A program made the translations under genes and the position numbers. From Octopus vulgaris (lineage: Eukaryota): a stretch of DNA of 64,000 bases. This document shows positions 2,150 to 57,786 of this stretch, piece by piece. Below the pieces are notes generated by a model that did no database searches, was not told the origin of the DNA, and was given only the letters and a program-made list of their open reading frames with translations. Location of the stretch: positions 29,326,001 through 29,390,000 of the forward strand of contig OX597829.1 in assembly GCA_951406725.2 (NCBI GenBank), written 5' to 3'. Position 1 is the stretch's first letter; each line of letters starts with the position of its first letter.

Positions 2150-2956
2150 TGAGAAAGTATATGACCCCACAGTCCAAAGCTGGAAGCACACAGGTGCTCA
2201 CAGATGTTACTAAGGCAGATGCTGCGCTCTGATGTCTTGCAGCATTGAGATGCTGTCATTGGTCGTCTTTGAAGGCAGCTACTGTTTGTGAGGTGAGAGA
2301 TCTTCACATTGATCTGTCTGTGGAAGAGGCTTTGAGTTCACGTGGGCTAATGCTGCTTCCTTTGAAGTTACTTTTCAGAGTGTTTTAGTACCTCAGTTTA
2401 GGTCTTCCTTGATTGCGTGAGCTTGCTGTACAATAGCTGTTTGGGTAAATTGTTGTCAGCCATTTTGATGACATGGCCAGTCCAGCATAACTGAGCCTTC
2501 AGCAACATTGATGCAATGCTTGTTGAATAAGCTCTGTCCAGTACTTCTTTGTTTGTCACACTGTCCTGCCAGCAAATGCCCATGATCCTGTACAGTGAAA
2601 TTGTTCCAGCTTTTTGATGTACCAACAGTATGGGAGTCTATATTTAAACATCCTTAGTGTAGTTAGAAATGGCTACAGCCCTGTAGATCTTGAGCTTTGT
2701 CAATTGTCTTATGCCTTTCTGCTGGAGGATTTTCACTTCCAGTCTTCCAACTGCTTGGCTGCCCCCGTGGATTCTGGATATTTCACTGTCTAATGATCCA
2801 TTGGCTGAGATTGTGCTGCCAAGGTACCTGAAACTTTCCACACACTTAAGCTGGACTTCTTCAGTGGTGATGTTGGAGGTGAATCGTGTTTGGGGCTGCT
2901 TGGACTAGGATCACTGTTTTCTTGAGGCTGATGGTCAGTCCTAAGAGCCTTGATGC
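2150..2956 (-). mobile_element. Decayed RTE-clade LINE fragment (RT thumb and C-terminus)
   Basis: ORF pieces ESFRYLGSTISANGSLDSEISRI..KLKIYRAV and LLKAQLCWTGHVIKM..LPKQLLYS, broken by stops and frameshifts. Confidence 0.75.
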
Positions 2957-3138
2957 TAAATGCTTAGTGGTATTTCGTCTGCCGCTACATTCTGAGTTCA
3001 AATTCCACCGAGGTTGACTTTGCCTTTCATCCTTTTGGGGTCGTTAAATAAGTACCAGTTACGCACTAGGGTTGATATCATCGACTTAATCCGTTTGTCC
3101 TCTCTGTATTTAGCCCCTTGTGGGTAGTAAAGAAATAG
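2957..3138 (+). mobile_element. SINE family B with Tx1-like 3' tail
   Basis: B-box, Nin/Deu-like block GCCTTTCATCC..GGTCG..AAATAAGTACC, tail GCCCCTTGTGGGTAGTAAAGAAA. Confidence 0.75.
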
Positions 3139-3190
3139 CTTTGCAGGTGATTTTCCTTATATATAAATGTGTGTGTGTGTATGTATATAC

Positions 3191-3223
<33 letters not shown>

Positions 3224-3240
3224 CACACGCATACAGACAT

Positions 3241-3272
<32 letters not shown>

Positions 3273-4556
3273 GTAAATAGAATTGCATCACCATGTGTTA
3301 ATTTTCAGGTTGAATTTCTATTGGAAAACAACTTTTCTCTGCACCCTCTAACAAACAGTGGTCTTATGGAAGGAAAGATTCAGTAAGGAAATAACACATC
3401 AAGATATTTACTTATTCTCATACCAGAGGTGTATTTCAAATGCTTGCAATATTGTGGATTTAGCAAAAGGATCTCAAAAAGCCAGATGCTGGTTGTTAAA
3501 TTGAGCAACAGATTAGGTTATTCATATTCTTTCATGCTGCTCTCTGTATATGATTCATTGACTTCTTGTTTGTCTGAAAACAAGGGTTTTCTAAATGATA
3601 TTAAAATTATGTTATTTAGTTCCTCAAGTTATTCAAACTATCAAGGACAGAGAGATATATTACTAATATTGTTTTTTATCCATCAACAACCCATATGTTG
3701 AAACAGAATGTTAACCGCACTCTAAATTCTGCAGATTAATAAGTCTATCCTAAAATTGCCCTGGAGACAACTTCTCCCCATCAAAATAAATAGGAAAAAA
3801 CTCAGTTCATTTGAGATGTTGAGATATAAGTCTTGTCTAAAAGGATAAGGGCAAAAATTGGACAAATGCACATATTTTTTATTATCAACAAAATTATTTT
3901 TAACATTTATAATTTCTTAAGGCATTTGTTTTTACGTAATATATTTTATCTACAAGAAGCTTTTTTTCTATATGAATGATTTAAAGCATCTTTTGTATGC
4001 ATTAAAATTAACAAAGCAGAAATATTTCAAACTATGACGAAAATAGTTTTAAATTATTTGATTTTGTAAGTGTATTCATGTTAATGAAAATATATTAAAT
4101 TAGACGCAAGAGGTATCTAAATGTGAGTGACCCTTATTATAAATGTCTTTTTTTTTTGTTTCAACGATGACGTAAATATGGATATGATATTTCAAGGAAT
4201 AAATTACATTTCTAATTTCATTTGTTTTGTACCTAACCTGTTGGCTTTGGTGATTCTATCTCCTTCACACCCGCTACTTTCATCCTTATCATTAATATTG
4301 CTGTCATTTGCTTCTTTAGCATGTGAATTAAACGAAATATTTATTCATTTTTAATCAATAAATAGTTTGTTGATCTTTTGTTTTATAACAGATCCAAATA
4401 TTCTAAATATTTATCTAAAACAGATATCAAGTATTAAGAAGGAATTCAATAATTCAATATAAATGAAAAAATAAATAAAAGACCATTAATCTGTTTTCTT
4501 TAAATCCATTTCGAAAACACCGTATACATATATATGTGTATAAGTATATCTATACA

Positions 4557-4605
<49 letters not shown>

Positions 4606-4627
4606 GTGTGTTAAATATATATTATAT

Positions 4628-4680
<53 letters not shown>

Positions 4681-5841
4681 TGGATGGATATTATACACAC
4701 ACATATTTGTCCTGAAAACTGAAGTTGGTTCACTCACTTCAAGGCTGACTGCGAGGAAAATTATTTATATAAGTATCTTTTATTTAGGTCATGACAAATG
4801 GTTTCTTTTCGATAACTATAGTATTCCGTAGAAGACGTTGGGCGCGCAAAGTGAAGCGCAAAATTTACTTGAAAATATCTACATTGCAAGTGCTAGTTCA
4901 ACATCTACCGTGACTCAGCAAATTATTTTGTTCAATTTATACATCATATACACTCACACATCCTCCTCGGTTTTCTCTTTATTACAAACTAGAAACGGTT
5001 ATTATTATGAAACAGTTTCTCTTTACTTTCTTGGTTCAAATCCCGCGGGGGTCGATGAAATAAAGTATCATATCATTCAAGTGTCAGGATCGATGCAATC
5101 GACTGGGTCCATCCCTTGAAAACTACTGGTTCTTTAATTAAAATAGAAACTAATTATTCTAATTATTCTCCTTCCCAATTTTTCTGATTGAAACGTGTTA
5201 TGTTACGTAAGTGTGTGCTAGTTTCGCATTTCCAACAACATTTCTTGTCTCTCAATTGTTAAGAATGTCGATTATTAGGCACATGTTATCCTCAGCAATG
5301 CCACGCAGGCTTTCCTTCTTCTGCACGCACCATTCTTTCAAGTCTGTTCACGTAGAATGTCGAGTTTCCACGCCTTAAACATTGAGTTGACTCAGTAAAA
5401 GTTTAAATAAACACAGCAAAATAAAATACAGAAGGCTGGATTTAGTAATGCAGAGATAGAAATTTTTAATGTTATTTAATATACTTATTCGGGTATTTAA
5501 ATATTTGCGACTACAATAGTTAGATGTTGATTGATGATGGCAAAAGTTAATGTGTATATTGGAATTTATTGCATATAAAGTAGGCAGGGCCGAACATGGA
5601 TATTTCCAGCTAGCTTAGGATATAGATTTCTCGTCAGTGTTAAAAGTTCTTGGTCCCAGGATGATAAACGGTAAGGTAGGATGTTTACTACTTTAGTAGG
5701 TCAACACAAGTCGTTTATTTATCTATTAATAAGCAGCGTGTATATACATAAAATGTATATTTCATATTTTACTTTATATATCTCTCTCTTTACACACACA
5801 TAAATTTACCAGCATAACTACCAATATGTATACATTCCTAT

Positions 5842-16332: not shown

Positions 16333-19300
16333 TTATGTTGTAACTTTCATTCGCAACTTCCGTGCTACATCCTTCCATCGTTCTTCATACGCTCTCCTAG
16401 TCAGGCATATTCTCTCCAGCCCTATCTTCCTTTTCAGGTGAAAGATGAAATAATTCATCAAACCAGGGCCGGAGATGAACTTGCCTGACTGTAAACCTTT
16501 CATTCTCGTCTTCCATATCACCTCTTTCGCGATTGCTACTACAACGAGAAAACGAAACTTACCTTCATTCACGAGGAAATCCGGTGGGTCAATTTTTGTA
16601 ATCGACTCAGTCGACAGCTGTACTCTTCGTGTACCTGACAACAGGTGTTCGGCATAAACCCACACCTCAGACACGTCCGGACAATGAACAATCGCGTGCG
16701 GGACGGTTTCCCTATCCCGCCCGCATCTTGGACATATCGGACTGTCTTGGCCACCGTGCCTTGCGAGTTTATCCCGAACAGGTAGAGCTCCTCTGTAGCA
16801 TTGCCATGCCAGAGACTTCTGGAAGTTGTCCAGTGTCCTTGGCTCGAACGTACGTCGGAACAGACTGGCCAGCTGATTATCGTCGAGACCTAGGGTTTCC
16901 CCCAAGGTATCTTCACATTCCGCCTCTACCAACCCTCTATAGAAGAAAGTGGTGGAACCCCCACCGCAGGCGTTGCCCGAGCGACGGAATAGCAGGAGAG
17001 CCTTGCGACACTCCGTGTACCAAGTACCAAGTTTCGATCTACGATTCAGCCAGGTTTCCCATCCACCGAAACTAGTGAACTTGGGAAACATCAGTTTTGC
17101 TAGCGAAGACCACACCCGTTCACCATCCAGGTAGAGCCACAGATGTCTTAACCTCAGCGCATGTCTGCGCATCATCAGCCAAGGCATCCCTAGCCCACCC
17201 TTTAACGGTTGTTGACAGCAAGTAGAGCGTTTCACAAGTGGTTTCCCGCCCTTCCACAAGAAGTAGAAGAGCTGTCTTTCCAACTTGATCAACCACGAAT
17301 CAGGGCAAGGAACGACGGAAAGGCGGTAGGTGATAACCGATGCGATAAACACATTGGCCACCTCCGCCCTCCCTTTCAGGGATAGCCACCGCCAAGACCA
17401 GGTCTTGGCTACTGCAGCCACCTTGCTCGTTACCTCGCCCCAATTCTTCTCTATTTGGAGGTCTGGACCGAACCAGACCCCTAGCAGTTTAATCGGACCC
17501 TCCGTCCAACGTCCCACGACGTTGTCAGGAGGCATCGACTTGCCTCTCCAGGTGCCGAGTTGCAAGCCGACTGACTTTTCGCGATTAACTTTTGCTCCTG
17601 TCACCGTCTCGTACACCTCTATGGCCTTGCCTACTTTACATAGGTGGTCCATTTCGGTTACGATGATGGTGATGTCATCCGCGTACGCTGACACTGATTT
17701 TCCATTACCTGGCTGTCTCGGGATGCCGCTCAGTTTTCGCAGTAATGGCTCAAGAGCCATCACGTACAAAAGCGGGGAGAGCGGACACCCTTGACGAACC
17801 GAGCGTTTGATTTTGAACGGCTTCGACAAGAAGCCGTTCACCCGAACTACCGAGTCAATGTTATCATAAATTTCGATAATCCACCTGAGGAATCCAAGGC
17901 TCAGCCCGAACTGTGCCAGGGCAGATACCAGGTAACGATGGTCGACCCTATCAAAAGCTTTAGATTGGTCTAAATGGACCAGTGCCCCACCCTTGCCAGA
18001 ATCACTATTAAACCCCTCTATAGTGTACCGCATTAGATGGAGATTATCCTGAATGGATCTGCCCGGAACGGCACATGTCTGTGCCCCTCCGATCAGACCA
18101 TCCGCGACACGCGCCAATCTTTTCGATAACACTTTGGCCAAAATCTTCAACTCTGTGTTTAGCAGAGTGATGGGCCTGAAATTATCAATGCACTCCCCTT
18201 GCTCGGGTCCTTTCTGACGAGAGTCACTACTCCCCGGCGCACAGATCTGGGTATAAGCCCGTTCTGCTGCCAGTTCGCGTAGACCTCCGCCAGTAGGTGC
18301 CCGAACAAGTCTGGCATACTCTTATATAACTCATAGGGTAGACCATCCAAACCCGGCGCCTTGCCCGCGCCGCAGTCCGCCATTGCCTCAACCACCTCCT
18401 CAGGCGTGATTGGCCCTTCACAGCCCTCCGCATCTCGCCCCGATAAGCGCGGCAGACCGTCGAGTAGGTCCGTAAAGGCCCTCCTCCTATCCAGTCCGCC
18501 GCACTCACCGAAAAGCTGAGCGAAGTGCTCCTGAAAGGCCTCACACATCTCCTCGGGTTCGTTTATCAACTCACCTTGTTGGTTCGTCAAAGATCGAATC
18601 GTGGCATCGTTACCATGCTGAGCTTCCACCACTCGGGCCCATCTCACGGCGTTGATTCCTTCACATCCCATATGACGGATTCTAGCCCTGACAATGCAGC
18701 CCATGTGTTTGGCCTCGAGGTGCTGGTTTAACACCAGTCTCTTGGCCGCCACCTGAGCCGCAGAGCCAGTTTCCATGGCTTCCTCTAATTCCTTAACTAG
18801 AGTAGTTTCCCTTCTAGCCTCTCTAGCCACTACTCCTATGCTATATCTAATAGACTCAAACTTGATGGCTCGTTTGAGGGCGTACCACCATTTGTTATTA
18901 ATGATGGTACCAGATAGTGCCCTCTGAATTATATTCCTAATCCGGTCTTTGTACTCCTTAATCGCCAAAAGGGACGTATTAAGTTTCCAGTAACCGGATC
19001 CTCTATTTTTAACCTTATCTATGTCAAGCTTACAAGTGACCATTTTATGATCACTGTAGCTGATCGGGTAAAACTGTGGACACTTAGCTATTTTACTGTC
19101 TACTTTTCTAATTAGTATTCTATCTAGATACGACCTGGAAGATCCGTCGCTGTTTGACCATGTCCACAATGGAGCGTTCGGAAATTCCAGCCTATAAGGA
19201 TCTGCTAGCTCAAAGCGGCTTAGCAGTTCCATGAAGCCACTGTTGCCTTTTCTATCTGGACACGAGCCAACATAATCTACATCCGCTTTGCAAATTGTGT

Positions 19301-19727
19301 TAAAGTCTCCTAGCACCACTAATGAATGCGAAGTACCAAGAAAGTTTTCTAGTTCACGAAAATAATCACTTTGCCCTGTATGGTTGGGTGCGTAAATTGC
19401 AACCAGTCTGATAACTTTACCATTACTGAACGTCAAATCCATGACGACCAGCCTACCTTCTGGATCTGCAAAAATTAACTTTTTCTCAGAAACCGGGTTT
19501 CTTTTTAATAGGACCAACACCCCACTCCCGCCTGTAGGACTGCCAGGAGAGAAAAAACTCTCGTAGCCGTCAAACAGCGGGAGTAGACCTCTTGGCCCCT
19601 CTAGCCGGGTTTCTGTAGCAACAATAACATCTAAATTACGCGACCTGATATCATGCAGGAAGCGACCTTGCTTCCAGCCTGCTCCCAGGCCGCGCACATT
19701 TAAACAACCAACATAAATGTAATCCAT
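16333..19727 (-). CDS. LINE ORF2 (APE endonuclease, reverse transcriptase, C-terminal Cys/His finger) with one frameshift at ~18195-18198
   Basis: APE motifs LNVRG, TET, AIYAP, GDFN, YLDRI, SDH; RT motifs KAPGLDG, DQSKAFDRV, RQGCPLSP, YADD; CPRC..HAIVHC. Adding one G restores KGECIDNFRPITLLNTELKIL and a 1131-aa ORF. Confidence 0.92.
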
Positions 19728-19736
19728 TACTTACCT

Positions 19737-21113
19737 TTATATCAGTGGTTCGGTTTTTTCTTCTTCTTCCTTCTCTTTTTCTGGGCCTCGTGGGGGAGTC
19801 TGACGTAGGCCCTCGAATATATGTGGAGATGTTACATCCAACCTAAGTGGGCCTACGTCATGGAAGAATTCTGACTTTATCCGCCCGTAATCCTTCCGGT
19901 CTATTTTGTAAATTACAAAGTCATTTTTTTTCTCTACTCTCTTCACATTGGCCATGGCTGCCAACACGTTTCCGAGTCTGCTATTTGATGCTTTTACGGC
20001 CATATATGAGTTCATTGACTCTTTTTTCTTTTTTAAAATTACTCTGGGAGGGGTGGTTTCCGTTTTTCTTTTTTTTTTTCCGATAATTTTTGCCCACCCC
20101 TCCTCATTTATCTTTTCCTCGCTCTTTTTTTTCTCCGCCGCTGGTTCTGCTGTTACCATCACCTCCACACCTTCAGTCTTCCCTTCTGGGCCGTCTGACG
20201 CTGCTTCTGGTGACACATTGTCTTTTTCTTTTGGCTTAGGTGCTTCCTGCGGTTTGGGTTGGGGCTGGCATTCCGCCCTTACATGCCCCTTCTTACCGCA
20301 GCCGAAGCACCTCGGCTTTCTGCCCTCTACGAAGACTGTGACTCTTTCATCTTCGCTTATCCTTAGAGTCTCTGGGATCTCTTCCAGGGTTTGTACTTCT
20401 GCTTGTATGGCTATTATTATCTTTTGCCCTTTCCAGAATTCTTCTTCTTCTACGGTGGCCTGGAGGATGTTTATTTTTTCCTCCAGGCCTACCATAACTG
20501 CTGCCACTAGGACTTCGGCATCCGCTTCTGGCGGAATGTTGTTCATTGTGATCTTGGAAGTTCTCTTGCCTTTATACAGGGGTAGGAGAACAATATCCTC
20601 CGCTTTTATGGGTTCCATGGATAGCTTCTTCGCTACCTCCTCTGACGTGAATCTCACCTCCACTGTGCCGTATTTCTTCCCTCGATTGATATACGTAATT
20701 TTATCCATTATTGGCTTTAAGCAGTTTTCAATCTTTTTCTCCTCTATTTTTTGGATTGCTCTGTTTGTTATACTGAATGTCTTATAGATTATTCTCCTAT
20801 TCGAAATATCCTCCTGTATTTGGGCGTTTGAAGCCACGGTTACTTCCGTGCCCTCTTTTGACACACAGTCTGCATGTTTTCCCAGGTTGTCCACGTTAAT
20901 TTTTTTAATTTTCTTCCCAGCCACTTCAGCGAATTTTTTTGCTGGAGTTGATGCTGGTACTGGTTTTACCATTTTCTTGGGCGACGCCGCCTCTTTTTTC
21001 TTCGGCGACAGCGCCTCTTTTTTTCTTGGCGACAACGCCTCTTTTTTACTTGGCGACAACGCCGGGTATTCATCCTCGCTCGTCACGGGCGAATAAGTGA
21101 TGGGGGACTCCAT
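19737..21113 (-). CDS. LINE ORF1 (458 aa from the first ATG) with CCHC zinc knuckle
   Basis: Uninterrupted ORF; CFGCGKKGHVRAEC knuckle; basic C-terminal region; sits upstream of ORF2. Confidence 0.88.
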   Translation of the reverse strand: MESPITYSPVTSEDEYPALSPSKKEALSPRKKEALSPKKKEAASPKKMVKPVPASTPAKKFAEVAGKKIKKINVDNLGKHADCVSKEGTEVTVASNAQIQEDISNRRIIYKTFSITNRAIQKIEEKKIENCLKPIMDKITYINRGKKYGTVEVRFTSEEVAKKLSMEPIKAEDIVLLPLYKGKRTSKITMNNIPPEADAEVLVAAVMVGLEEKINILQATVEEEEFWKGQKIIIAIQAEVQTLEEIPETLRISEDERVTVFVEGRKPRCFGCGKKGHVRAECQPQPKPQEAPKPKEKDNVSPEAASDGPEGKTEGVEVMVTAEPAAEKKKSEEKINEEGWAKIIGKKKRKTETTPPRVILKKKKESMNSYMAVKASNSRLGNVLAAMANVKRVEKKNDFVIYKIDRKDYGRIKSEFFHDVGPLRLDVTSPHIFEGLRQTPPRGPEKEKEEEEKTEPLI

Positions 21114-21999
21114 CTTGAACAAATGGCTTTAACAAGCCTTTGGTAATCTAAACTGATTGTAGTTTTCCCCCACTGAGGGGGGAACACCAACGCGAAGTCT
21201 TCGCGCGAAGGTTGACTTCGTCCGTTAGACAACAATGGACAAAAAAAGGTAGACCAACAGTATATAATAACAGAGATAAGTAGTATGAGAGCAAAAATAT
21301 ATATCAACTTACTAATAACGCAATAAATTGATTTCCTCCATGTGTTCAAATCTTTTTTCTCTACATTGTATACTTTATAGACAATAGTCTTTTCTTTAAT
21401 TTAATTTTTTATTATCCATCTGGACTATTCCATTTCTGCACGCTAATTTTATTTTTAATTTATTCCCATTCATGTGAAACCACTTATTCAAGTTCAAATC
21501 ATTGAAGCAATTTTATACCAATTGCTATTTTTACTTTTGTTATGTTACGATTATATTATACTTTAGTTTGATTTTAATTATTACTTACTACATATAATTC
21601 AATTTTTATTGTTAAAGTGAAAGTATCTGACCTAAAATAGAGAAATGTTTTTGTTTCATTTTTAACACGTAATACTGAAATAGTGGAGAAGATATGATAT
21701 TGCTATGGGCTCGCTCTAGGCAAGAAGTTGAACATTTTTTTTGCCCATGAAACTACATAGACCCTAAGTAAGGCATGTGTAAAATTTGAATGAAATTGGT
21801 TGCGTAGTTTTAGGGAAACACACAGACAGACAGACAGACACATTCTCAGTTTTATATATATATAAAGATAGATATATAAATACACACATACACACACACA
21901 CACACATATATATATACACAACAAGAAATAATGTCTCTTTTAATATATGAATATATATATATACATACACACACACATATATACACATATATACATACT

Positions 22000-22330: not shown

Positions 22331-24590
22331 AAAAGTGAAAGGGGTACAGTGAACTTGCTGTGAGGAGTGGAGTATCCAACGTTTCAGATTCAATCCTTTG
22401 TCAGAAGACAGAGAAAAAGAGAAGAAAAAAAAAAGAAAAGTGTCAGAGTTTACATCCTCTCAGCTTGAAAAACTGGCTGCAACTGATAATGGACGCAGAA
22501 TAACACGGGTTGCTAACATGAAACAGAAGTTACAGGAGAGAGCATGCAGAAAGGAGAAGGAAAAGGATGATGGTGAGAGTAGAAGTAAGTAAATACAGGA
22601 ATGTTGCAGAGAGAAGGTGGAAAGAGGATTAAAAAGGGTTAAAAAGAATTAAGAAGTGAAAGGATGAAAGGCAAAACGTTCATTCATATCTGTTGGGGAC
22701 ATAGTGCCAAGATCAAATATGAGACATTGCTCCTTTCGTTTCCTAGAGAAGGGGGATCCATGGTGCAAGGTCATACCACACACTGATAAATCTGCAGTAG
22801 AATGATACACAGTGTTGAATTGGGTGGTGACAGGTTGGCCTGGCATATGTAGCATTATGCTTTTGATGTGTTCACAAAAGCAATCCCTAAGGTATCGCCC
22901 TGTTTCTCCAATGTAAAGAGCACTTCAGAGTTTGCATATGATGCAATATCTGAGATTCTTTTATCTTTCTACCTTGACAAACTGTTATCCTCTCTCGTTA
23001 CTGCTCTACCTTTGCTTATAAAAGACATTAATCATGAAGTACACCTCTTCAACACATTCTCTTTTCTACCTGGTGAATCCAAACTTCTTTCCATCAAGGA
23101 CATTAAATGTTTGTACACAGTCATCCCTCACAATGATGGTCTACTAGCACTTAAACACTTCTTAGACTATTGTTCTGTACCTGAACCCAGCACTAATACA
23201 CTCCTCCGCCTAGCTGAGCTCATCTTAGCACTCACTTGTTTTTCCTTCTCTGGTAAATTCTATAAGCAGTTTGGTGGGCCCCAATTATGCCAACTTCTTT
23301 GTGGGTTATGTAGAGGAGCAAATCTTTGCTCACTTCCCTGGACCCATCACACTGACGACCGCATTAGCACCACAAGTCTTAACAGACAACAGGTCAACGA
23401 TTTTATTTCTTTTGTTAACACCTTTCACCCAGCCTTGGAATTCACTCACACCATATCTGATACTTCTGTTTGCTTTCTGGACATCTCCATGAAAATACAC
23501 AATACCTATCTCTCCACCTCTGTCTACAATAAACCTTCTGAACTCCCACTAATCTTCCTCCAACCCCAAACACATTAAATCTGCCAATCTCTCAATTTCT
23601 TTGCAGCATTGATTCAGATTTCAAATCCCATTGCAAAACAGTGCGATAGTTTTTTCTAAATCAAGGGTATCCTCCATCAGTTGTTGACCTGGCACTCCAC
23701 TGAGCCCAAGCCATCTTCAAGCCCTTCCACCGACCGTATTCCACTCACTCTCACCTACCACCTGTCCATCCTCCCTCTAAAACACAGACTCACCCACAAC
23801 TTTTACATTCTTCTTTCTGACCCAACAATTGCTCTTATCTTTTCCACACCACCTCTCCTGTCTTTTAAAAAAGATAGGAGTCTTATAAATTTCTTTGTTA
23901 GAAGCTTCACAGCTCCCAGGTCTGCACAACCAAGAACCTTTAAATATTCTCACCAACGATGTAACACACGCCCCTACATCAACAATATTGCTACCATCAT
24001 GGGACCCAAGAAACAATAACACATAACACACCACTTCTGTTGCACTTCGGTGAATCTCATATATTGCATCATATGCAAACTCTGCAGGGCTCTTTACATT
24101 AGAGAAACAGGACGACACCTTGGGGATCGCTTTCGCAAACACATCAGAAGCATAATGGACTTCACCTTCTCTAGGAAACGAAAGGAGCAATGTCTCCTAT
24201 TTGTTATTGGCACTATGTTCCCAACAGGTATGAATGAACGTTTTTCCTTTCATCCTTTCACCTCCTCTTAATTCTCTTTTGCCCTTTTTAATCCCCCTTC
24301 TACCCTCTCTCTGCTACATTCCCATATTTACTTATGTCTACTCTAATTCTTACCTCTCCTATAATTTATATTTCATGTTAGCAGCCCTTGTTATTCTGCA
24401 TCCATTTTCAGTTGCAGCCAGTTTTTCAAACTGAGAGGATGTAAACTCTGACTTTTTTCTCTGCCCCCAGTCGAAAGATTGAATCCAAAACACTGGATAT
24501 TCCACTCCTCACAGCAATTTCACTGTACCCCTTTCACTTTTTCTATATTTTCTCAAATTATGCCAACACAGAGCTACTAGATTATTGCCA
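22331..24590 (+). mobile_element. Decayed Penelope-like element (RT + GIY-YIG) with inverted duplication of its 3' end
   Basis: RT motifs DIKCLYTVIPH, GPNYANFFVGYVE, FLDI, SVYNKP; GIY-YIG NLIYCIICKLCRALYIRETGRHLGDRFRKH; 22331-22958 is a diverged reverse complement of ~24050-24541. Confidence 0.88.
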
Positions 24591-24808
24591 TATATATATA
24601 TACATATATAGATATACATGAGGAATATTTGAAGGATGTATATCTATATATATATATATATAATAAATATTAGGGAATAAATCCAATTTTATAGTAAAAT
24701 ATTATATAATATTAATTAGAGACAAAACCACTATTATGCAAATCAAACAAAGAAAGACTTAATCCAATACATAAAAAATTTTATATAAATTAAATAATAT
24801 TAAATTCG

Positions 24809-24854
24809 CCACTACAATTGTTTCGTGTCTCTTCTAAGGACATTCATCAGGTGG
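24809..24854 (-). ncRNA. Type I hammerhead ribozyme motif (mirror copy)
   Basis: Exact reverse complement of 24916-24961. Confidence 0.82.
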
Positions 24855-24915
24855 TATTCAGATCTTCTATTCAATTTTAACTTCATAACTTAAAATTGAA
24901 TAGAAGATCTGAATA

Positions 24916-24961
24916 CCACCTGATGAATGTCCTTAGAAGAGACACGAAACAATTGTAGTGG
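24916..24961 (+). ncRNA. Minimal type I hammerhead ribozyme motif
   Basis: CCAC-CTGATGA-ATGTC-CTTAGAAGA-GACAC-GAAAC-AATT-GTA-GTGG: stem I CCAC/GTGG, canonical core, stem II TGTC/GACA, palindromic stem III ACAATTGT, GUA site. Confidence 0.82.
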
Positions 24962-25080
24962 CGAATTTAATATTATTTAATTTATATAAAATTTTTTATG
25001 TATTGGATTAAGTCTTTCTTTGTTTGATTTGCATAATAGTGGTTTTGTCTCTAATTAATATTATATATATATATATATAT

Positions 25081-26214
25081 GCAGCATTCAACTCTGCCAA
25101 TCATGACACCCTCTTGAAGGTCATGCAGGCAGATGGTATCCCACCTAAACTTCTCAATCTTATCAAAGCTTATTACTGCTCAACAAGATCCCGTGTATGG
25201 TGAAGTATCGGAACCCTTTGAAATATGGTCTGGCGTTCAGCAGAGATGTGTTCTTTCGCCAACTCTTTTCAATTATGCCATCGACTGGTTCACCACAAAT
25301 GCATTAAGGGAGTTCCCCGGCATCACTGTTGGTCACAACTTTTCCGACAAGGATCTAGACTACGCAGATGACATTGCGATACTTGGTGAAACATTTGCTG
25401 ACATCCAGTTTGCTATTAATGAGCTCCAGCATGTTGCATCGCAGATTGGTATAAAAGTCAAGGCCTTGAAGACCAAAATCCTCACAGCCGGCTTTGCCCC
25501 ACCAGACAAAATACCCATTGTCCTCAATGGTGATATTCTCGAAGAGGTTGAGAGTTTCAAATACCTTGGTGCCATCATTATATCTACAGATCAAGGTGAG
25601 GCTGACATTAAAATACGAATTGACCTCGCTTGCCAAACCTTCAACCGACTCAATGCATGACTCTGGTCAAGATCTGAGATCTGACGCACCACCAAAGTAT
25701 GGATCTACCAAGCACTAGTGCGAATGATTCTCCTTTATGGCAGCAAGTCATGGCCAATGAGGGTGGAACATATTAAGTGACTAGAATCCTTTGATCACCT
25801 CTGTCTATGCCACATCCTTCGTGTCCAATGGCATCACTTTGTCTCCAACAATTCGGTGTGACACCAGTGCAGAATCACCTTCCTCTGACAAGTCATCCTA
25901 ACGAGACGTCTGCATTGGCTGTGTCATGCCCTCCGTCATCAACCAGGAGAATTCATCTACGAAGCAATTGCCCCAGCTCCCCTTCAGGGTTGGCAAAAGT
26001 GATGTGGTGGACAACGAAAAACCTGGCTGATGATAGTCAAGGCTGATCTGGAATCCAACCTAGGCTCCCACTGGAATAAGGAGTGGTTGGAGATCACGCG
26101 GTCATTAGCCTCAAATCGCCAGGCCTGGTCGGCGTTTGTGAGAGATGCAGCATTGAGGATGAATGAAGCCAGCTCAACCCACCCCAGGTGAATGCTGTTT
26201 CAAGTCAAGTCAAG

Positions 26215-26217
<3 letters not shown>
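25081..26217 (+). mobile_element. 5'-truncated RTE-clade LINE with (CAAGT)n tail
   Basis: GVQQRCVLSPTLFN, DLDYADDI, VESFKYLG; several stops; tail CAAGTCAAGTCAAGTCA; (TA)n on both sides. Confidence 0.85.
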
Positions 26218-26247
<30 letters not shown>

Positions 26248-26248
<1 letters not shown>

Positions 26249-26622
26249 TAGCAGTATTGCCCGGCATTGCTCAGGCTTGCTTCGACCCTCTAGAATTGGA
26301 ATTTTTGAAAAGTAAAAATTTTGCATTATGTAGCTTGTTATTCTTTTTAAGTGAACATTTTTCTGGTTGAAACACACCAAAAAATGGCGACACGGCAGTA
26401 AAAAAATCATAAAAAATAGGGATTTTCATAGAAAAAAAGCACCTTTTTGATGTAAATAATTTTTGGTCTTAACATGGTCCAATTTGAATCTTTTCTTCTA
26501 CGGAATGAAGAGCAAGCCTTCGTCTATCATACTCTCAATTTTGGTCAACTTGTGCTGCAGGGTCTCGGGGAAGATAGTGTTAGTTGAAGGCTACGAAACC
26601 TGCCACACACAGACAACTTCAG

Positions 26623-26640
<18 letters not shown>
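26248..26640 (-). mobile_element. Non-autonomous Helitron
   Basis: 3' end CCTGAGCAATGCCGGGCAATACTGCTAG|T; 5' end TATATAAAGCTGAAGTTGTCTG merges into (TA)n; termini similar to 51871-52273. Confidence 0.7.
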
Positions 26641-26660
<20 letters not shown>

Positions 26661-26665
<5 letters not shown>

Positions 26666-28155
26666 CCTGTTCGATCTGTAGAAAAGGTGTAGGTAGAAAC
26701 TCTATAAGATGTACCCAGTGTAAGCTATGGACACATAAGAGGTGCAGCAATGTCAAAGGTAGGCTAACTGGGAAGATAGTTTTTGTATGTGGCAGATGCT
26801 CGGGAGCATTGACCTCCGAAAATCTGCAGAAAACAACTTCCGTCACTTTCCAGGGGGAAAAACTAGAAGTAGTTGATAGCTTCCGTTATCTAGGTGACCA
26901 AGTCAGTAGTGGGGGTGGGTGTGCTGAAAGTGTAACTGCTAGAATAAGAATAGCCTGGGCAAAGTTTAGGGAGCTCTTACCTCTGCTGGTGACTAAAGGC
27001 CTCTCGCTCAGAGTAAAAGGCAGACTGTATGATGCATGTGTACGAACTGCCATGCTACATGGCAGTGAAACATGGGCTGTGACTGCTGAGGACATGCGTA
27101 AGCTCATGAGGAATGAAGCCAGTATGCTCCGATGGATGTGTAATGTCAGTGTACTTACTCGACAGAGCGTTAGTACCTTGAGAGAAATGTTGTACCTAAG
27201 AAGCATCAGTTGTGGTGTGCAAGAGAGACGATTGCACTGGTATGGTCATGTGGCGAGAATGGATGAAGATAGGTGTGTGAGAAAGTGCCAATCCCTAGCA
27301 GTTGAGGGAACCCGTGGAAGAGGTAGACCCAGGAAAACCTGGGACAAGGTGGTGAAGCACGACCTTCGAACTTTAGGTCTCACCATGGAAATGACTAGAG
27401 ACCGAGACCTATGGAAGTATGCTGTGCGTGAGAAGACCCGGCAAGACTAGTGAAGCCATAACCCGTGGCCCCTACCTGGGACGTAGTCAGTCCACCTGTG
27501 CATACCTTCCTTCTTGTGACACTTGTGAAGACCTGTTGAGGCAAGTGAAAATCAAATCAAACCAAATCAAAATAGATGAACATCAATGGAATTTGTATCT
27601 TTGTGGTACCAGTGCTGGTGGCACATAAGAAAACCATCCGAACATGGCCGTAGCCAGTACCGCATTGACTGGCCTCTGTGCTGTGGGCACGTAACAAACA
27701 CCATCCGATCGTGGCCGTTCACCAGCCTTGTCTGGCACCTGTGTCGGTGGCACATAAAAAACACCATCCGAGCGTGGCTGTCTGCCAACCTTGTCTGGCA
27801 CCTGTGTCGGTGACACATAAAAAACACCATCCAAGCGTGGCCGTCTGCTACCTGTGTCGGTGGCACATAAAAAACACCATCCGAGCGTGGCCGTCTGCTA
27901 CCTGTGTCGGTGGCACATAAAAAACACCATCCAAGCGTGGCCGTTCGCCAGCCTTGTCTGGCACCTGTGTCGGTGGCACATAAAATCACCCACTACACTC
28001 TCGGAGTGGTTGGCGTTAGGAAGGGCATCCAGCTGTAGAAACACTGCCAGATCTGACTGGCCTGGTGCAGCCTTCAGGCTCCCCAGATCCCAGTTGAACC
28101 GTCCAACCCATGCTAGCATGGAAAGCGGACGTTAAACGATGATGATGATGATGAT
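26661..28155 (+). mobile_element. 5'-truncated RTE LINE copy 1 (open C-terminal ORF to 27450, repeat-containing 3'UTR, (GAT)n tail)
   Basis: C4HC3 finger, VDSFRYLG, RLHWYGHV, RGRGRPRKTW; CCATGCTAGCATGG hairpin before the tail. Confidence 0.9.
27618..27985 (+). repeat. Minisatellite (~7 units of 50-66 bp) in the LINE 3'UTR
   Basis: Recurrent GTGGCACATAAAAAACACCATCCGAGCGTGGCCG...CCTGTGTCG. Confidence 0.85.
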
Positions 28156-28159
28156 GGTG

Positions 28160-29986
28160 ATGTCAGGGAAAATCACCACTGATGCTATATTTCTGGTAAG
28201 ACAGTTGCAGGAGAAATATCTAGCCAAAGATAAACCTCTGTACCTGGCTTTCGTTGACATGGAGAAAGCCTTTGACAGGGTTCCCCGATCCCTTATTTGG
28301 TGGTCAATGAGGAAACTAGGGATTAATGAATGGTTAGTGAGAGCTGTGCAAGCCATGTACAGGGACGCTGTCAGTAAGGTGAGGGTTGGCAACAAGTACA
28401 GTGAAGAATTCAGAGTAGAGGTAGGGGTCCACCAAGGTTCAGTCCTCAGCCCCCCCCTCCTATTTATCATAGTCCTCCAGGCAATAACGGAGGAATTCAA
28501 GACAGGATGTCCCTGGGAACCTTTCTATGCTGATGACTTTGCTCTAATTGCTGAGTCACTATCAAAACTAGAGGAAAAGTTGCAGGTGTGGAAACAAGGA
28601 TTAGAATTGAAGAGCCTTAGAGTCAACCTAGCTAAAACCAAAGTTCTAATAAGTAAGAAGGAAGACAAACCACAAATCCCTTCAGGTAGATGGCCTTGCT
28701 CGATCTGTAGAAAAGGCGTAGGTAGAAACTCTATAAGATGCACCAAGTGTAAGCTATGGACACATAAGAGGTGCAGCAATATTAAAGGAAGGCTAACTAG
28801 GAAGATAGTTTTTGTATGTGGCAGATGCTCAGCAGCTATAAACACTGAAAATGTGCAGAGAACAACTTCCGCCACATTCCAGGCAGAAAAACTAGAAGTA
28901 GTTGATAGCTTCCATTACCTAGGTGACCAAGTCAGTAGTGGGGGAGGGTGCACTGAAAGTGTAGCTGCAAGAATAAGAATAACCTGGGCTAAGTTCAGAG
29001 AGCTCTTACCTCTGTTAGTGACAAAGGGCCTCTCGCTCAGAGTAAAAGGTAGACTGTATGATGCATGTGTATGAACAGCCATCTACATGGCAGTGAAACA
29101 TGGGCCATGACTGCTGAGTATATGCATAAGCTTTCAAGGAATGAAGCCAGTATGGACCTAAGAAGCATCAGATGTAGTGTGCAAGAGAGACAACTGCGCT
29201 GGTATGGTCATGTGGTGAGAATGGATGAGGATAGCTGTGTGAAAAAGTGCCACACCCTAGTGGTTGAGGGAACCTGTGGAAGAAGTAGACCCAGGAAGAC
29301 CTGGAATGAAGTGGTGAAGCATGACCTTTGAACTTTAGGCCACACTGAGGCAATGACTAGTGACGGAGACCTTTGGAAATATGCAGTGTGTGAGAAGACC
29401 CACAAGCCAAGTGAGACCATGACCCATGAACTATGCCAGGGGTGTAACCAGCCCACTTATGCTTACCTTTCCTTCAGTGGTCACTAAACTCTGCTTGCAG
29501 AGATCTGTTGAGGCAAGTGAAATTGAAATCAAATCAAATTTACAAAGTCAACGACTGGCACCTGTGCCAGTTGAGCGCCAAGATCATCATCCGAGCGTGA
29601 TCGCTGCCAGAGCAGCTGACTGGTTTCTATGCTGGTGGCATGTAAAAAGCACCATTCAAACATGATCGTTACCAGCATCACCTTACTAGCACAAGAAACA
29701 TTCGAGTGAGGTCGTTGCCTGTGCTGCTGGACTGGCTCCTGTGCAGGTGGCATGTAAAAAACACAACTTGAGCGTGTCCATTGCCTGTACCACCTGAACG
29801 GCTCTCGTGTCGGTGGCACAAAAAAGCACCCACTACATGCTCGGAGTGGTTGGCGTTAGAAAGGGCATCTAGCTATAGAAACTGCCATACCAGATTGGAG
29901 CCTGGTGCAGCCATCTGGTTCACCAGTTCTCTGTCAAATTGTTCAACCCATGCTAGCATGGAAAACGGACGTTAAACGATGATGAT
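28160..29986 (+). mobile_element. 5'-truncated RTE LINE copy 2, head-to-tail with copy 1
   Basis: TTDAIFLVRQLQEK, FVDMEKAFDRV, GVHQGSVLSP, YADD, PHD-like insert; stop at 29072-29074, internal deletion, (GAT)n tail. Confidence 0.9.
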
Positions 29987-31299: not shown

Positions 31300-32241
31300 A
31301 CATATATTTATATACACAAGGGATCAATGTTACTATAGAGTAGTAAAGTCATTGGATTTACATATAGAATCATTAGAATACTGAGCAAAATGCCTCGAGA
31401 TATTTAGTTCACAGTTCAAATCCTGCTGAGACATCTTTGCTTTGATATTGTAGGTAAGTGTCAGACAAAATAGTTTGTAGCATTTAGTTATGGCCCTTTA
31501 CCTTCTGATTTCAAATCCCTCCAAGGTAAATTTTTGCCTTTCATCCTTCTGGGAGTGGTGGAAATAAAACAAAGTGCAAATGAAATCAACATAAATTGAC
31601 TGCTCTGAGGCACTATGCTTTTGTACATTCATTTAACATGCAAGCCACCATATAAAAAGTGCCCAGTACACTCTGTAAAGTGGTTGGCATTAGGAAGGGG
31701 ATCCAGCCAGAGAAACCTTGCCAAAATAGATGACTGGAGCCTGGTGCAACATACCAACAATGTTTCCTTACTACTTTCTAATGGTATCACAAAGAGACTC
31801 TTGCTAAGCTTAAGATTTCTTCAACAATATACTTCCCAACCACTTTATTCCAGGTGAAGTCTCATTGGGTGAACCTTAGGCGAGTGTCTTCTACTAAAGC
31901 CTCAGACTGATAAAGCCATGTGGGTGGACGTGGTAAGATGAAAACAAAAAGGAGCCTGTTATATATGTATGTGTGTGTGTGTCCTGCACCACTGCTTGAC
32001 AACTGATGTTGGTATGTTTAAGTCCTCGTAACCAAAAATTCTTCAGGGTGGTGCCTCAGTCTAGTAACTGAAACAAGTAAAAGATATACAGGAATTCTAA
32101 TAGCAAAATAACAATGTTTATTTGCCCAGTACAACAGTGATGTTTTTTTCATAATAGCTAATTTATTGATGGCTGTGTGGTTAAGAAATTTGCTTTCCAG
32201 CTACATGGTTTTGGGTTCTGCTCCATGCTGTGGTACCTAAG

Positions 32242-33672
32242 CACATTGTGCCCAGAGTGGGAATTTATTATTATTTGGAAGTTTTCCCCAGATGTTTAAA
32301 ATGTACATTTCCTGGTTCTCTAAACTCAAGAGATTACAAAGCAAAAATACTTGAATTTAAAATAATGTATGGTCCAATTTTTATAGCACTTTAAAGTCAG
32401 CCAATTTAATGAAATTCACTTTTAAAAAAAAAAAAAAAATTTTTTTTAGTATTATAAGATTGAACATATTTTCTTTCACAAAAAAGCTTTTTACCCATGA
32501 ATTTATTTAGAAGCATTTTTTTTTATTGTCTTTCAGTCAAGCTACAGCTTAGAGCACATAGGCCAACATAAATTTGAGAAAGTAGGGCATGCATGAAAAA
32601 TATACAAATTTTTGGTAAAACCCCCTGAAACTTGATAATTTTATTTTAAATGACGAATTTTGACATATTAAGGGCTAACATATTTGACATCTTCAACATT
32701 TTATGTAAACTGTGGGAAAAAAAAAATCAGTTCAAAGGGGTTAAAAGGCCAAACAGAAAGTATAATTCCAATTTGGGTGCCAAACATTAAAACCAACCAA
32801 AATTGGATAAAATCGGTAGTTATATACCCCCAACGTAATTAAACAGGTATAAAAAAAGGAAGAATAAAATGGACTCAAAACCTAATAAATTTCTTGAAAT
32901 AATTGATCTTAAATGCACTATTTTTGGTATTTAGCCTATTTTATGGGGTAAAAATCTGATTAGGTAGGTTAGATTCTGGCTTGGAGGATTTTGCCTTGCT
33001 TACACTGAAATTGAAGAAGGGCCAAAACACAAGATAACAAAAGGAAAATATTCCCAACAAATCCTTGGATTGAAACGTTACCATTGTCTACCCCACCCAA
33101 GAAGAAAAATACAATGATCCCCACCCATGATTCACAAAGAAAATCAGAATCATTTGCACTAAATTGTGAAAACTGACCACTTATTCACAATGCCAAACAA
33201 TAAATATGCGTAACAAGGACCAGTCAGTAATATAAGTAATTTGATTCTTAATTGTTCTCTCAAAGCAGACACCTTTTGGTGTTTTGAAGAATGAGCTGTG
33301 TGACCAACTTCACCACAAACAGAACAACTTGGGCTAGGACGTTTCAAAGCAATTGTTGTATGCAACATGATGGACATTCTTCTGAAGATGTCTTGGATGT
33401 TATCCTTGATTTCAATCAAGGATAACATCCATGACATCTTATCTTGCAGATAATCATTTTTAACTGCAATACACCAAAAAAACAGCAATTTTGGTCAATA
33501 TGCCCTGATTTAGTTATTTGAACCTAGACCCCCATAAAAAAGAAACAAATAATTTTGGTTCTCTCTGATAGCCCTTAAAATTGTGGTTCAAACAAACCCT
33601 CAACCACTACCACGTGATTATTTTAACTTGAGATATGATTTTCCCTGAATTAGCCAATCTGGGCACAATGTG
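32242..33672 (-). mobile_element. Non-autonomous Transib/RAG1-like DNA transposon inserted in a SINE
   Basis: TIR CACATTGTGCCCAGA (15/15; 18/19 extended); 5-bp TSD CTAAG/CTTAG; host SINE resumes on both sides; transposase-like C-terminal remnant inside. Confidence 0.7.
33279..33410 (-). pseudogene. Transposase C-terminal remnant (Transib/RAG1L-like terminal helix plus CxxCxxxGH tail)
   Basis: IKDNIQDIFRRMSIMLHTTIALKRPSPSCSVCGEVGHTAHSSKH. Confidence 0.55.
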
Positions 33673-34831
33673 CTTAGGCAAGTGTCTTCTGTTATAGCCC
33701 TGTGCAGACCAAGGGCTTGTTAATGGATTTGGTAGATGGAGACTCAGACAAGCATGTCAAATGCGTGTGTCTCCCTCCTTGTCTTGACATTCTATTTTAA
33801 CTGTAAACAAGCAGTGTTATTCATCCTGTGAAACATGTCTGGTCATGAGGAGATAGTATTTTGCTTGGAAACAAGATGAGCATCTGGATGCAGAAAAACT
33901 GTCTTGATTAACTTAGTCTAACCCATGCAAGCATGGAAAAGTGGACATAATATAAGGGTGATGACAAGCTCTTTCTTTTGGACCTCAAATCCTGATGGAT
34001 TTGTCAAGGCATTATCTATTATGGCATATGGTATGCCTAAGGCATTTTAGACCTGGAGGACTCCATCTTTCACAAGGTTTGAACAGAAGTTGGTTTTATT
34101 TAGAGAGAGATAGAGAAAAAAAAAAGTTGGCTGTAGCAGGATTTGAACTTAAGTGCAGAGAACTGGAAAGAATCTTGCAAGGCATGCATACTATGGAGAC
34201 TAACAACTTGCTGCTACATAGTAATATCTGGCTGGTAATTCGCAAAACTCATTGTGACCAATACATTAAAAAAAATTGAAGACATATATACAAAGAAATA
34301 ATTAAAAGGCAAATACAATACAGAATTATATATTTCATTTTATTGGCTTAATAAATAATCAAAACAGATGGGAAAGATAAAAAATAACATTTTTCAAAAG
34401 AAAAGGAAAAACAAAACAACAACCATACATTAGAGAAACAAAAATGATTAAAATTTGTTGATGTATATCATGAAGTCTATCTTGTAAAATATCTATTTAA
34501 AATTAAAATTATTTTTAATGCTGTTGTGTCACACTCAAAGCCAATTTCACAAAAACCATCTGCTAATATTTACAAGTGTGTGTATGTCTGTATGCGCATG
34601 TGTGAAACTAAAGAGAAAGAAAAAGAGAGTTATTTAGAAAAATTGAAAATAAACAAAAAATTTAAAGGACAAGATACTACCCAAACCCAAACTAAACAGT
34701 CCAAATGCAACTAAAAACAGTATTAGTTAACTACAAAACAGATAGACACTCATACATTTGGCTTTGAAAGAAAAAAATTAAAAAATGCTAAAGTTTTAAT
34801 ATACTTGCAGACTATTTATAAATTTGATGCC

Positions 34832-55535: not shown

Positions 55536-57297
55536 CATTTAACTTATATTTTAAAAAAAATATTCTTGTGGTAAGTGCCACTTATCAAAGAGTAGGAAGG
55601 TCATAGATTTGGCAGCACTTATGTCATTATTACTAACAATAACTATTACACAGCTACTGTTGAATGAAAAGATAAGGATGGATATGTTTACAAGGTGTCC
55701 AACATGAATATATCTTTTATTTGTTTCAGTCAGACACCACTTACACTTGCCCAAGGTGTCACACTATGGGGCTGAACCCAGGACTATGTGGTTTGGAAGC
55801 AAGCTTCTTATCACATAGCCATATCTGAACCTATATTTATTGTATCACCATCATCATCCAACATCTGTTGTCCATGCTGGCATGGGTTGGACAGTGACCA
55901 GGGCTGGTAAGCTGAAGAGCTGCACCAGACTCCACTCTGGTTAGGCATGGTTTCTATGGCTGGATGCCCTACGATTGTTGATAAGATCCATGAAAATTAA
56001 AAGGTTAAGTATCAAAGAATATTAATAAGGAGTAAAAAAAAAACACATTTAGCTGTAACCATGACCACTTCTGTACATAATTGAGGTTACTGAGGTTGAT
56101 GTTTAGCTTCAATTTCTTTACATCAAATACAAGAGCGAGAATATTTCCAGTAATTTGCAGCAGTTTTGGAGAAAATGGAAATATACCAATCGTAGGAGAA
56201 AGTGAAACTGCAAATGGGTAATGAGAACTGGTGTGGGTGGTATGCTTGGAGTGGAACTAGTATGTTCTCAAGCCCTTATCGACAGTAATACTATATCACA
56301 TTACCACCATATAATACATGTTAAGTTTAGAATTAAATAACAAATAAATATATTACTGAAACTACAATAATAAGAATTTATTGGAAGGAAAAAAAAAAAA
56401 AAAAATGGCAAGCTTTAGATCAATCGAGCTGGCAGAATTGTGAGCACATAGCAGCATTTTCTCCTACCAAAATTTGAAACCAATTAAGGTGAAAATTTAC
56501 CTTTACATAATAAATAGGTCACTGTAACATATTTTCGAATATGCACAGTAAATATATTTTATATTGGTATTCTTTTATTTGTTTCAGCCATGCTGGAACA
56601 CCACCTTTAGTTGAACAAATCGACCCCAGGACATTCTTTGTAAGCCTAGTACTTATTCTATTGGTCTCTTTGGCCTAACCGCTAAGTTATGGGGACGTGA
56701 ACACACTAACATCGGTTGTCAAGTGATGGTGGTGGTGGTGGGAACAAATACAGACACACACATATACGATGGGCTTCTTTCAGTTTCTGTCTATCAGATC
56801 CACTCACATGGCTTTGGTCAGCCTGAAACTATAGTAAAAGACACTTGGTCCTTGTGTGATTCTAACTCAAATTGTAAAAGGCTTGAAACTCAATAGTACA
56901 AAACATTTAACCTGGTTGTATACTGGACCAAAGACCACTAGACAATTTCCTTTGTTTCAAGAGAATAATTTTTGAAAAGAGGATTAAATTATTTTATTCC
57001 ACAGAACCTAGAGCAGTGGAAGACCATATGTGGAGGCATTGGAACTGAGAACAGTAATTATATTTCTTTGTAAAGTTTCATTGTTTTCTTCTTTTTTTTT
57101 TTGCAATAGTGTGGTTTATTCCAAATTGCACAACCTAATAGGTAACATTATGTAAATTCATTGCATTACAGAGTGAAGGGGAGATAGGAATGCAATCACA
57201 CAGCAATAAGTTTAGTGTTTTTCTTTTACTATTAGTCAGTTAGTGGATTGTGCAGGGAGCATTGTCTTCAAGAGTATTTGATTATATATTGTATTTG

Positions 57298-57786
57298 CGT
57301 ATGGATGAGGATAGCTGTGTGAAAGAGTGTCACACCTTAACAGTGGAGGGAACCTGTGGAAGAGGTAGACCCAGAAAGACATGGGATAAGGTGGTGAAGC
57401 ATGATCATCGAACATTGCGCCTCACAGAGGCAATGACAAACGACCAACACCTTTGGAGATATGCTGTGCTTGAGAAGACCCGGCAAGCCAAGTGGAATTG
57501 TAGCTGTGGCCAATGCCAGTGTCGCATAACTAGCCTGTTTAAAAGTACCCTCCAGTTGTTGGACAATATGCTGTGCATGAGAAAACCAGTTGAGTCAAGT
57601 GAAATCGTAGTCGTGACTGATGCCAGTGCTGCCTGACTGGCACCTGTGCCGGTGACATGTAGAAAGCTGGTGTTAGGAAGAGCATCCAGCTGTAGAAACC
57701 TTGCCTGATCAGATTGGAGCCTGGAGCAGCCTCAACTGTTCAACCTATACCAGCATGGAAAGCAGATGTTATACGATGATGATGAT
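57298..57786 (+). mobile_element. RTE 3' fragment (ORF end, UTR, (GAT)n)
   Basis: RMDEDSCVKECHTLTVEGTCGRGRPRKTW matches 27256-27450. Confidence 0.8.

Follow-up and report, generated by a model that had tools for sequence, protein, structure and literature searches.

Remains of a probable non-autonomous, internally deleted Transib/RAG1-superfamily transposon in the genome of Octopus vulgaris

Analysis of a 64,000-nucleotide stretch of the Octopus vulgaris genome (contig OX597829.1, positions 29,326,001 to 29,390,000; hereafter the window) revealed a 1.4-kb element at 32242-33672, the features of which are collected in Table 1. As an initial annotation made from the letters alone had noted, the element is bounded by terminal inverted repeats (TIRs) that start with CACATTG, and it encloses a short peptide. 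The two arms are alike at 18 of 19 bases, and the peptide lies on the minus strand. The same annotation had proposed that the insertion splits a SINE and that the transposon was active after this SINE family spread. Removal of the element together with 5 bp restored an unbroken high-copy repeat, presumably a SINE, the junction of which could be aligned in 12 of 12 other copies at 74-82% identity, and a 27-mer of the interrupted repeat has 34,710 exact matches in the genome. The element was inserted after this host repeat copy was in place, so that this part of the timing stands, but the insertion does not date the repeat family as a whole. An inverted duplication within the remnant has arms matched at 26 of 27 positions and takes the place of about 14 nt of family sequence; since it is missing from the other 14 aligned copies and thus private to this one, it was rejected as a feature of the transposon, and we infer that it formed after insertion by a template-switch-like event. 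The window copy is an ordinary fossil with no likely host function. Elsewhere in the window, the minus strand carries at 16333-21128 a near-complete non-LTR retrotransposon, which we take to be L1/Tx1-like, in which a 463-aa ORF containing a zinc knuckle is followed by two overlapping ORFs in different frames, one of 523 aa for the endonuclease and one of 662 aa for the reverse transcriptase; several more pieces of LINE reverse transcriptases, from other families, lie at 22853-29074 and 57244-57636.

Table 1. The element, its parts and its insertion site, in positions of the window
Feature	Position	Strand	Remarks
Left part of split SINE-like repeat	32170..32241	+	Ends in left TSD; junction aligns gaplessly
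Left target site duplication (TSD), CTAAG	32237..32241		From sequence; 5-bp length set by the family
3' TIR, 19 bp	32242..32260	+	Downstream of transposase gene; without clear nonamer
3' non-coding region, about 1 kb	32261..33223		Also in parent; longest open frame at most 91 codons in parent/family majority
Transposase remnant, last ~70 codons	33224..33450	-	Decayed; last core helix, CxxCxxxGH tail, terminal helix
27-bp inverted duplication, 2-nt loop	33385..33440		Private to window copy
5' subterminal region	33451..33653		Abuts coding remnant via the family's common ~2.0-kb internal deletion
Decayed Transib-type nonamer, spacer 23	33634..33642	-	6/9 here, 9/9 in family majority
5' TIR, 19 bp	33654..33672	-	
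Right TSD, CTTAG	33673..33677		From sequence and family comparison
Right part of split SINE-like repeat	33673..33771	+	From alignment across empty site

The flanks CTAAG and CTTAG form a near-palindrome that fits a TSD of 1, 3 or 5 bp equally well, so that the window alone cannot discriminate a 5-bp TSD from a 3-bp or 1-bp TSD with a longer TIR. Searched at the DNA level, the genome (2.8 Gb in 227 contigs) returned 56 matches at about 35 places, which is a lower bound, and an exact 15-mer of the TIR occurs 19 times, as against 0 occurrences of its reversed control; two isolated 15-mer matches, on C7 and C8, had no element body and were set aside. Examination of 39 loci yielded 12 distinct copies with both ends. 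A 5-bp TSD is perfect in five of these and has at most one mismatch in seven, while the remaining five depart from it at 2-4 positions, which means that not all surviving copies obey the rule. Cross-paired flanks, serving as a control, gave no perfect TSD, and none of the 12 two-ended copies has a perfect TSD of 2, 3, 4 or 6-10 bp; the 5-bp length read from the ambiguous flanks of the window copy was thereby fixed by the family. All seven good target sites have an initial C and lean toward C-A-T-A-G, and this C-W-W-W-G bias is close to the targets CAWTG/CASTG reported for non-autonomous Transibs in the available part of PMC1131882. A single internal junction is common to 13 of 15 aligned copies, and ten copies compared with the majority sequence gave K2P distances of 0.059-0.101 (mean 0.072). 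The insertion junction is bridged by contigs in organisms B, C and G (in a fourth run, element sequence was too scarce for it to be counted), and as the flanks in G differ by 5-7% from the window, the insertion would predate that split. A 2.8-kb two-ended copy on C5 (L095 552-3339; G000:C5:128378051-128380838) was considered as a two-gene candidate and rejected, because in place of its interior stands a piece of a LINE reverse transcriptase, into which a further short repeat is nested. Other repeats sit inside the transposon copies L102 (about 651-876) and L014 (about 1123-1498), so that nesting goes in both directions.

The 69-aa remnant of a sister copy matched the C-termini of 14 longer outside proteins of up to 723 aa, with 53-78% identity over the remnant; searched alone against Pfam and PDB, the remnant gave only zinc-knuckle matches below the cut-off. 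With one of these proteins, P0005, as query, a single place in the genome was found to hold the enzyme core (C24:17835804-17839211). This longer parent copy is 3.4 kb long and has one gene of about 715 codons, in the order 5' TIR, gene, about 1 kb, 3' TIR. The parent locus (L074) matches the family majority at 1-1199 and 1201-1357, whereas its positions 2718-4763 (about 2.0 kb) are missing from the derivative; a single deletion of about 2 kb spared only the ends and the gene's final ~70 codons, and the derivative spread to more than 12 sites. The parent has suffered 7 stops, at least 4 frame changes, truncation of its 5' end and loss of approximately residues 178-287, with which the first catalytic Asp is gone, and its interior has no other match in the genome. 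The expectation that autonomous copies may exist was not borne out, since the only copy found with an enzyme core is broken; the long-query genome searches, including this protein search, used a stricter first look, and a further parent copy may exist. The intact relatives measure 703-723 aa, and D253, D367, C382, C385, H450, H604, H609 and E631 (P0005 numbering) are each kept in 83-95 of the 95 aligned rows, the exceptions being almost always gaps, with E631 assigned as the catalytic E by alignment. Searches of GTDB genomes and of viral contigs turned up no relatives, and the family therefore gives no input for the 'bacterial Transib' idea.

Against PDB, P0005 found HzTransib as its sole significant match (E 9e-17) and no RAG1 chain, and a profile of 88 family members gave 284 bits for HzTransib, 199 for BbeRAG1L and 144-153 for RAG1. 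An AF2 model of an intact relative (pLDDT 91.8, pTM 0.79; a model from only 14 sequences reached pLDDT 48 and was set aside) superposed on HzTransib 6pqx with Z 31.7 and rmsd 2.8 over 469 aligned residues and on RAG1 with Z 30.7 and rmsd 2.8 over 485, a difference within one Z unit by which structure scores do not separate the two, and the next superfamily, P element, followed at Z 12.2. HzTransib, BbeRAG1L and RAG1 were the only solved members that the PDB searches returned, and in an atlas search, which we treat as a lead only, eukaryotic clusters partly annotated with RAG1_RNase_H ranked above vertebrate RAG1. Together with the 5-bp TSD and the CAC ends, the HzTransib/RAG1 fold bears out the assignment to the Transib/RAG superfamily that had been made from the window. 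On sequence grounds, the enzyme is nearer to HzTransib, and it retains a RAG1-type alpha11-alpha12 insert and a CxxCxxxGH tail.

The terminal sequences were described initially as holding only a weak nonamer match, in an A-rich block that begins 23 nt past the heptamer at the right end. The block is indeed there, scoring 4/9 against the RSS nonamer in the window copy and 7/9 in the majority, but the match is better than had been thought: the majority 5' end agrees at 9/9 positions with the published Transib nonamer AAAAAAATC at spacer 23 (background 5e-5 per position), and among 18 copies the best nonamer match at this end is 6-9/9 at spacers of 22-27, a variation that stems from slippage in the A-run. 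At the 3' end, the match to the Transib nonamer is 1/9 at spacer 23 and 5/9 at spacer 12, where the RSS nonamer is matched at 3/9 with T,T at the essential positions 5-6. The sequences thus indicate a nonamer at spacer 23 on the 5' end only and no 12/23-spaced RSS pair. The two ends diverge after 19 bp; their best common block, at offset 11 with 9/16 matches, is weak, with p 0.25 when every offset is allowed and p 0.02 when only offsets 10-12, picked afterwards, are considered, and a candidate subterminal motif at both ends (14/16) was dropped as not significant (p 0.06). In ctenophore Subgroup I elements, the spaced second TIR element that is weak in the octopus family is clear, two of them having a 10-nt TIR offset of the same polarity according to the accessible part of the Tao 2022 supplement (PMC9435367). 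The 3' TIR of an outside relative (L075, on a metagenome contig) starts with CACAGTG, and its first 164 bp, the non-coding terminal bases 1634-1797, are 71% identical to the family 3' end, which may reflect a binding-site constraint or recent horizontal spread.

Subgroup I Transibs are defined by the alpha11-alpha12 region, a CTT1 tail, asymmetric TIRs and the lack of a pre-RNase H loop, and were proposed as an intermediate between Transib and RAG1L, in which that loop is a gain (PMC9435367); the available part of Martin et al. 2020 (PMC7204232) tells Transib from RAG1L by low identity and a missing N-terminal region. The alpha11-alpha12 region is present in the parent and its relatives. From the CxxC to the next conserved His, the parent and its close relatives have 65 aa; the corresponding counts, taken from profile alignments, are 31 in HzTransib, 61 in BbeRAG1L and 65 in zebrafish RAG1; across aligning rows this ZnC2-to-His distance is 62-129, the exceptions being the Subgroup II-like P0126 (33) and one frameshifted row. 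The pre-RNase H beta1-beta3 loop, by which RAG1 exceeds the family profile by 20 aa and BbeRAG1L by about 40 aa, is absent, while the Transib-type GGNTNTG loop is present. The N-terminal 90-100 aa before the GRP are helical in the model and contain 0-2 Cys in five of five proteins, too few for a RING. The C-termini of P0119, P0145 and P0176 resemble that of MleTransib_3931 by eye. A FastTree tree of 63 proteins and the parent over 409 columns (rows of >90% identity or with <330 core residues were left out) had one Subgroup II-like long-branch outgroup and neither RAG1L nor named Subgroup I sequences, and it therefore cannot place the family against RAG1L; the diagnostic features and the by-eye likeness to MleTransib_3931 make the link to Subgroup I likely. 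The genome also contains three far more decayed Transib-like coding relics (L128, G000:C7:91195070-91195372; L129, C2:76129020-76129268; L130, C8:88452461-88452874), which are nearer to P0119, P0125 and P0092 than to P0005, have no DNA match to the window family and probably stem from an earlier Subgroup I-type invasion; a Subgroup II-like protein query of the genome found nothing under the stricter first look.

The tail had been taken as a link to invertebrate RAG1-like proteins. Its CxxCxxxGH motif is present, but it is no sign of RAG1L proper, since such a tail also occurs in Subgroup I Transibs (PMC9435367). The 66 tails found among 179 proteins (cluster duplicates counted) comprise 28 of the form Cx2Cx3GHx4C, 28 with a His at x6 instead and 10 that differ otherwise. 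In the parent clade, Cx2Cx3GH lacks the fourth Cys of the CTT1 motif (Cx2Cx3GHx4C), which the sister clades carry in full, and a conserved His lies two residues beyond the lost Cys; within the parent's 22-tip clade (support 0.95), the His stands at x6 in 18 members and at x7 in two, the tail is missing in two, and the last Cys is found in no member. Confidence of the model drops in this part, with pLDDT 66-79 at residues 681-700. In P0120, P0128, P0158 and P0194, which form a separate clade, the last tail Cys was exchanged for His at x4, an independent switch. The proteins nearest the parent combine a GRP that is followed by S or N with the altered tail; since the GRPR/K NBD and the CCGHC tail are argued to be redundant and loss-prone in the accessible part of Martin et al. 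2023 (bioRxiv 2023.08.20.553239), the family is a possible test case for this redundancy.

The best explanation, to which we assign a probability of roughly 0.87, is that the element is an internally deleted and non-autonomous member of a family founded by a cut-and-paste transposon of the Transib/RAG1 superfamily with one gene, likely of Subgroup I, that was likely mobilised in trans and is extinct in this genome. In HzTransib and RAG1, a dimer binds both ends, cleaves by nick and then hairpin at its DDE site, and acts with a 5-bp stagger. By analogy, the derivative would likely have been mobilised by the transposase of the parent, a dimer of which would hold both ends and cut them in the nick-then-hairpin manner by D253, D367 and E631, with insertion at a 5-bp stagger. 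In this process, the CxxCxxxGH tail may act as a clamp on the bases next to the heptamer on its inner side, and the A-rich nonamer that stands at spacer 23 of the 5' end may be recognised by the NBD with its GRP. The mean divergence of 7% from the majority sequence suggests one old burst of activity, and the family, we tentatively propose, probably entered the genome by horizontal arrival.

An alternative is that the element belongs to the RAGL transposons of ProtoRAG type and that the copies recovered here are ones from which RAG2L has disappeared by loss or deletion. The alpha11-alpha12 region and the tail are as in RAG1L, the profile aligns continuously to BbeRAG1L over 115-567, and RAGL is known in molluscs, as the available part of PMC7204232 records; however, the profile score is lower for BbeRAG1L than for HzTransib, and the family has neither the RAG1L pre-RNase H loop nor the Cys-rich N-terminal region. 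The convergent RAG2L/kelch gene that had been envisaged has neither room nor an ORF in the parent, where 1004 bp between stop and 3' TIR contain a longest open frame of 91 codons, and likewise in the outside relative L075, where the 914 bp from stop to TIR contain no frame of 60 codons; moreover, the contigs that carry many of the full-length relatives measure 2.6-3.7 kb, a length that suits an element with one gene. Genome searches with Pfam RAG1 and RAG2 gave no match, but the controls were silent too, so these searches carry no weight. We regard this reading as largely refuted and very improbable, and the element gives no grounds to suppose that the host has RAG-like recombination or a RAG1-RAG2 pair.

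It is also improbable, in our estimate, that the family is a separate, nameable Transib/RAG1 branch, marked by a histidine-ended tail and a one-sided nonamer, and not simply Subgroup I. In the tree, the parent and its relatives do group together on a long stem (0.7, with a clade support of 1.0), set off from the ctenophore-like proteins, with the 22-tip clade lacking the last tail Cys nested inside, yet Cys-tailed members fall within the same larger clade, all other Subgroup I marks are seemingly shared, and the one long-branch outgroup is the only one that the tree has. Membership in another CAC-ended superfamily (Chapaev, EnSpm/CACTA), or in PIF/Harbinger with a 3-bp TWA target, has a probability close to nil. 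The flanks of the window copy can equally be read as a TAA/TTA duplication of 3 bp next to a TIR that starts with G, but Chapaev, CACTA and Harbinger produce TSDs of 2-4 bp, and the refutation comes from the family, where none of the 12 two-ended copies has a perfect TSD at lengths of 2-4 or 6-10 bp, and from the Transib/RAG1 fold and sequence of the enzyme.

The preferred reading, a deletion derivative of a single-gene Transib, can be compared with known systems. Subgroup I Transibs (MleTransib_3931, PbaTransib_0868; PMC9435367) share with it the single gene, alpha11-alpha12, the GRP in the NBD, the CAC TIRs and a CxxCxxxGH tail followed by a short acidic-hydrophobic end, and their 5' end seems to be the one with the longer spacer; the octopus clade differs in that its fourth tail position is not Cys, a His standing two residues on, and in that all genomic copies found in octopus are dead. 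HzTransib (Subgroup II; 6pqn, 6pqx), the best match in sequence and structure, has the same DDE and zinc ligands, a 5-bp TSD and no RAG2 partner, but its tail is of another kind, and it has no counterpart of the alpha11-alpha12 insert of ~34 aa. ProtoRAG/RAGL (BbeRAG1L, 6b40) and vertebrate RAG1 share the fold including the NBD (model residues 90-680 align to RAG1 385-1007), alpha11-alpha12, heptamer-like ends and the 5-bp TSD, the tail motif being common with invertebrate RAG1L, whereas the octopus family is without RAG2L, a RING/N-terminal zinc region, the pre-RNase H loop and a 12-spaced nonamer. TransibN1_AG and N2_AG, as presented in the available part of Kapitonov and Jurka 2005 (PMC1131882), are likewise trans-amplified deletion derivatives with a 5-bp TSD and the AAAAAAATC nonamer at spacer 23; they belong to another host group and transposase subgroup, and the octopus derivative differs by retaining a coding remnant that links it to its parent. 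No description of the family was found in the literature on Transib in octopus, cephalopods and molluscs, although it may be catalogued in Repbase or Dfam; the word 'octopus' has no match in the accessible text of the Tao 2022 supplement and occurs in that of PMC9885083 only as a web address.

A mollusc survey counts, in its accessible part, 1 Transib among 14,275 DDE elements (PMC10294476), and with the present family the range of Subgroup I-type Transibs widens to a host group in which, by that count, they are seemingly rare. The window copy is also a pointer to intact 700-aa relatives of the branch that has been proposed as intermediate between Transib and RAG1L (Tao 2022, PMC9435367). We consider it possible, though doubtful, that these relatives represent an undescribed RAG2-free clade, intact in other hosts, in which the RAG2-binding alpha11-alpha12 helices and a GRP NBD are combined with a 23-spaced nonamer at one end and a change from Cys to His at the fourth zinc ligand of the tail. 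If this is true, an enzyme of this kind would serve as a living proxy for the Transib from which the RAG transposon arose, and it would permit a direct test of the trade-off between tail- and nonamer-based end recognition on the way toward the 12/23 rule.
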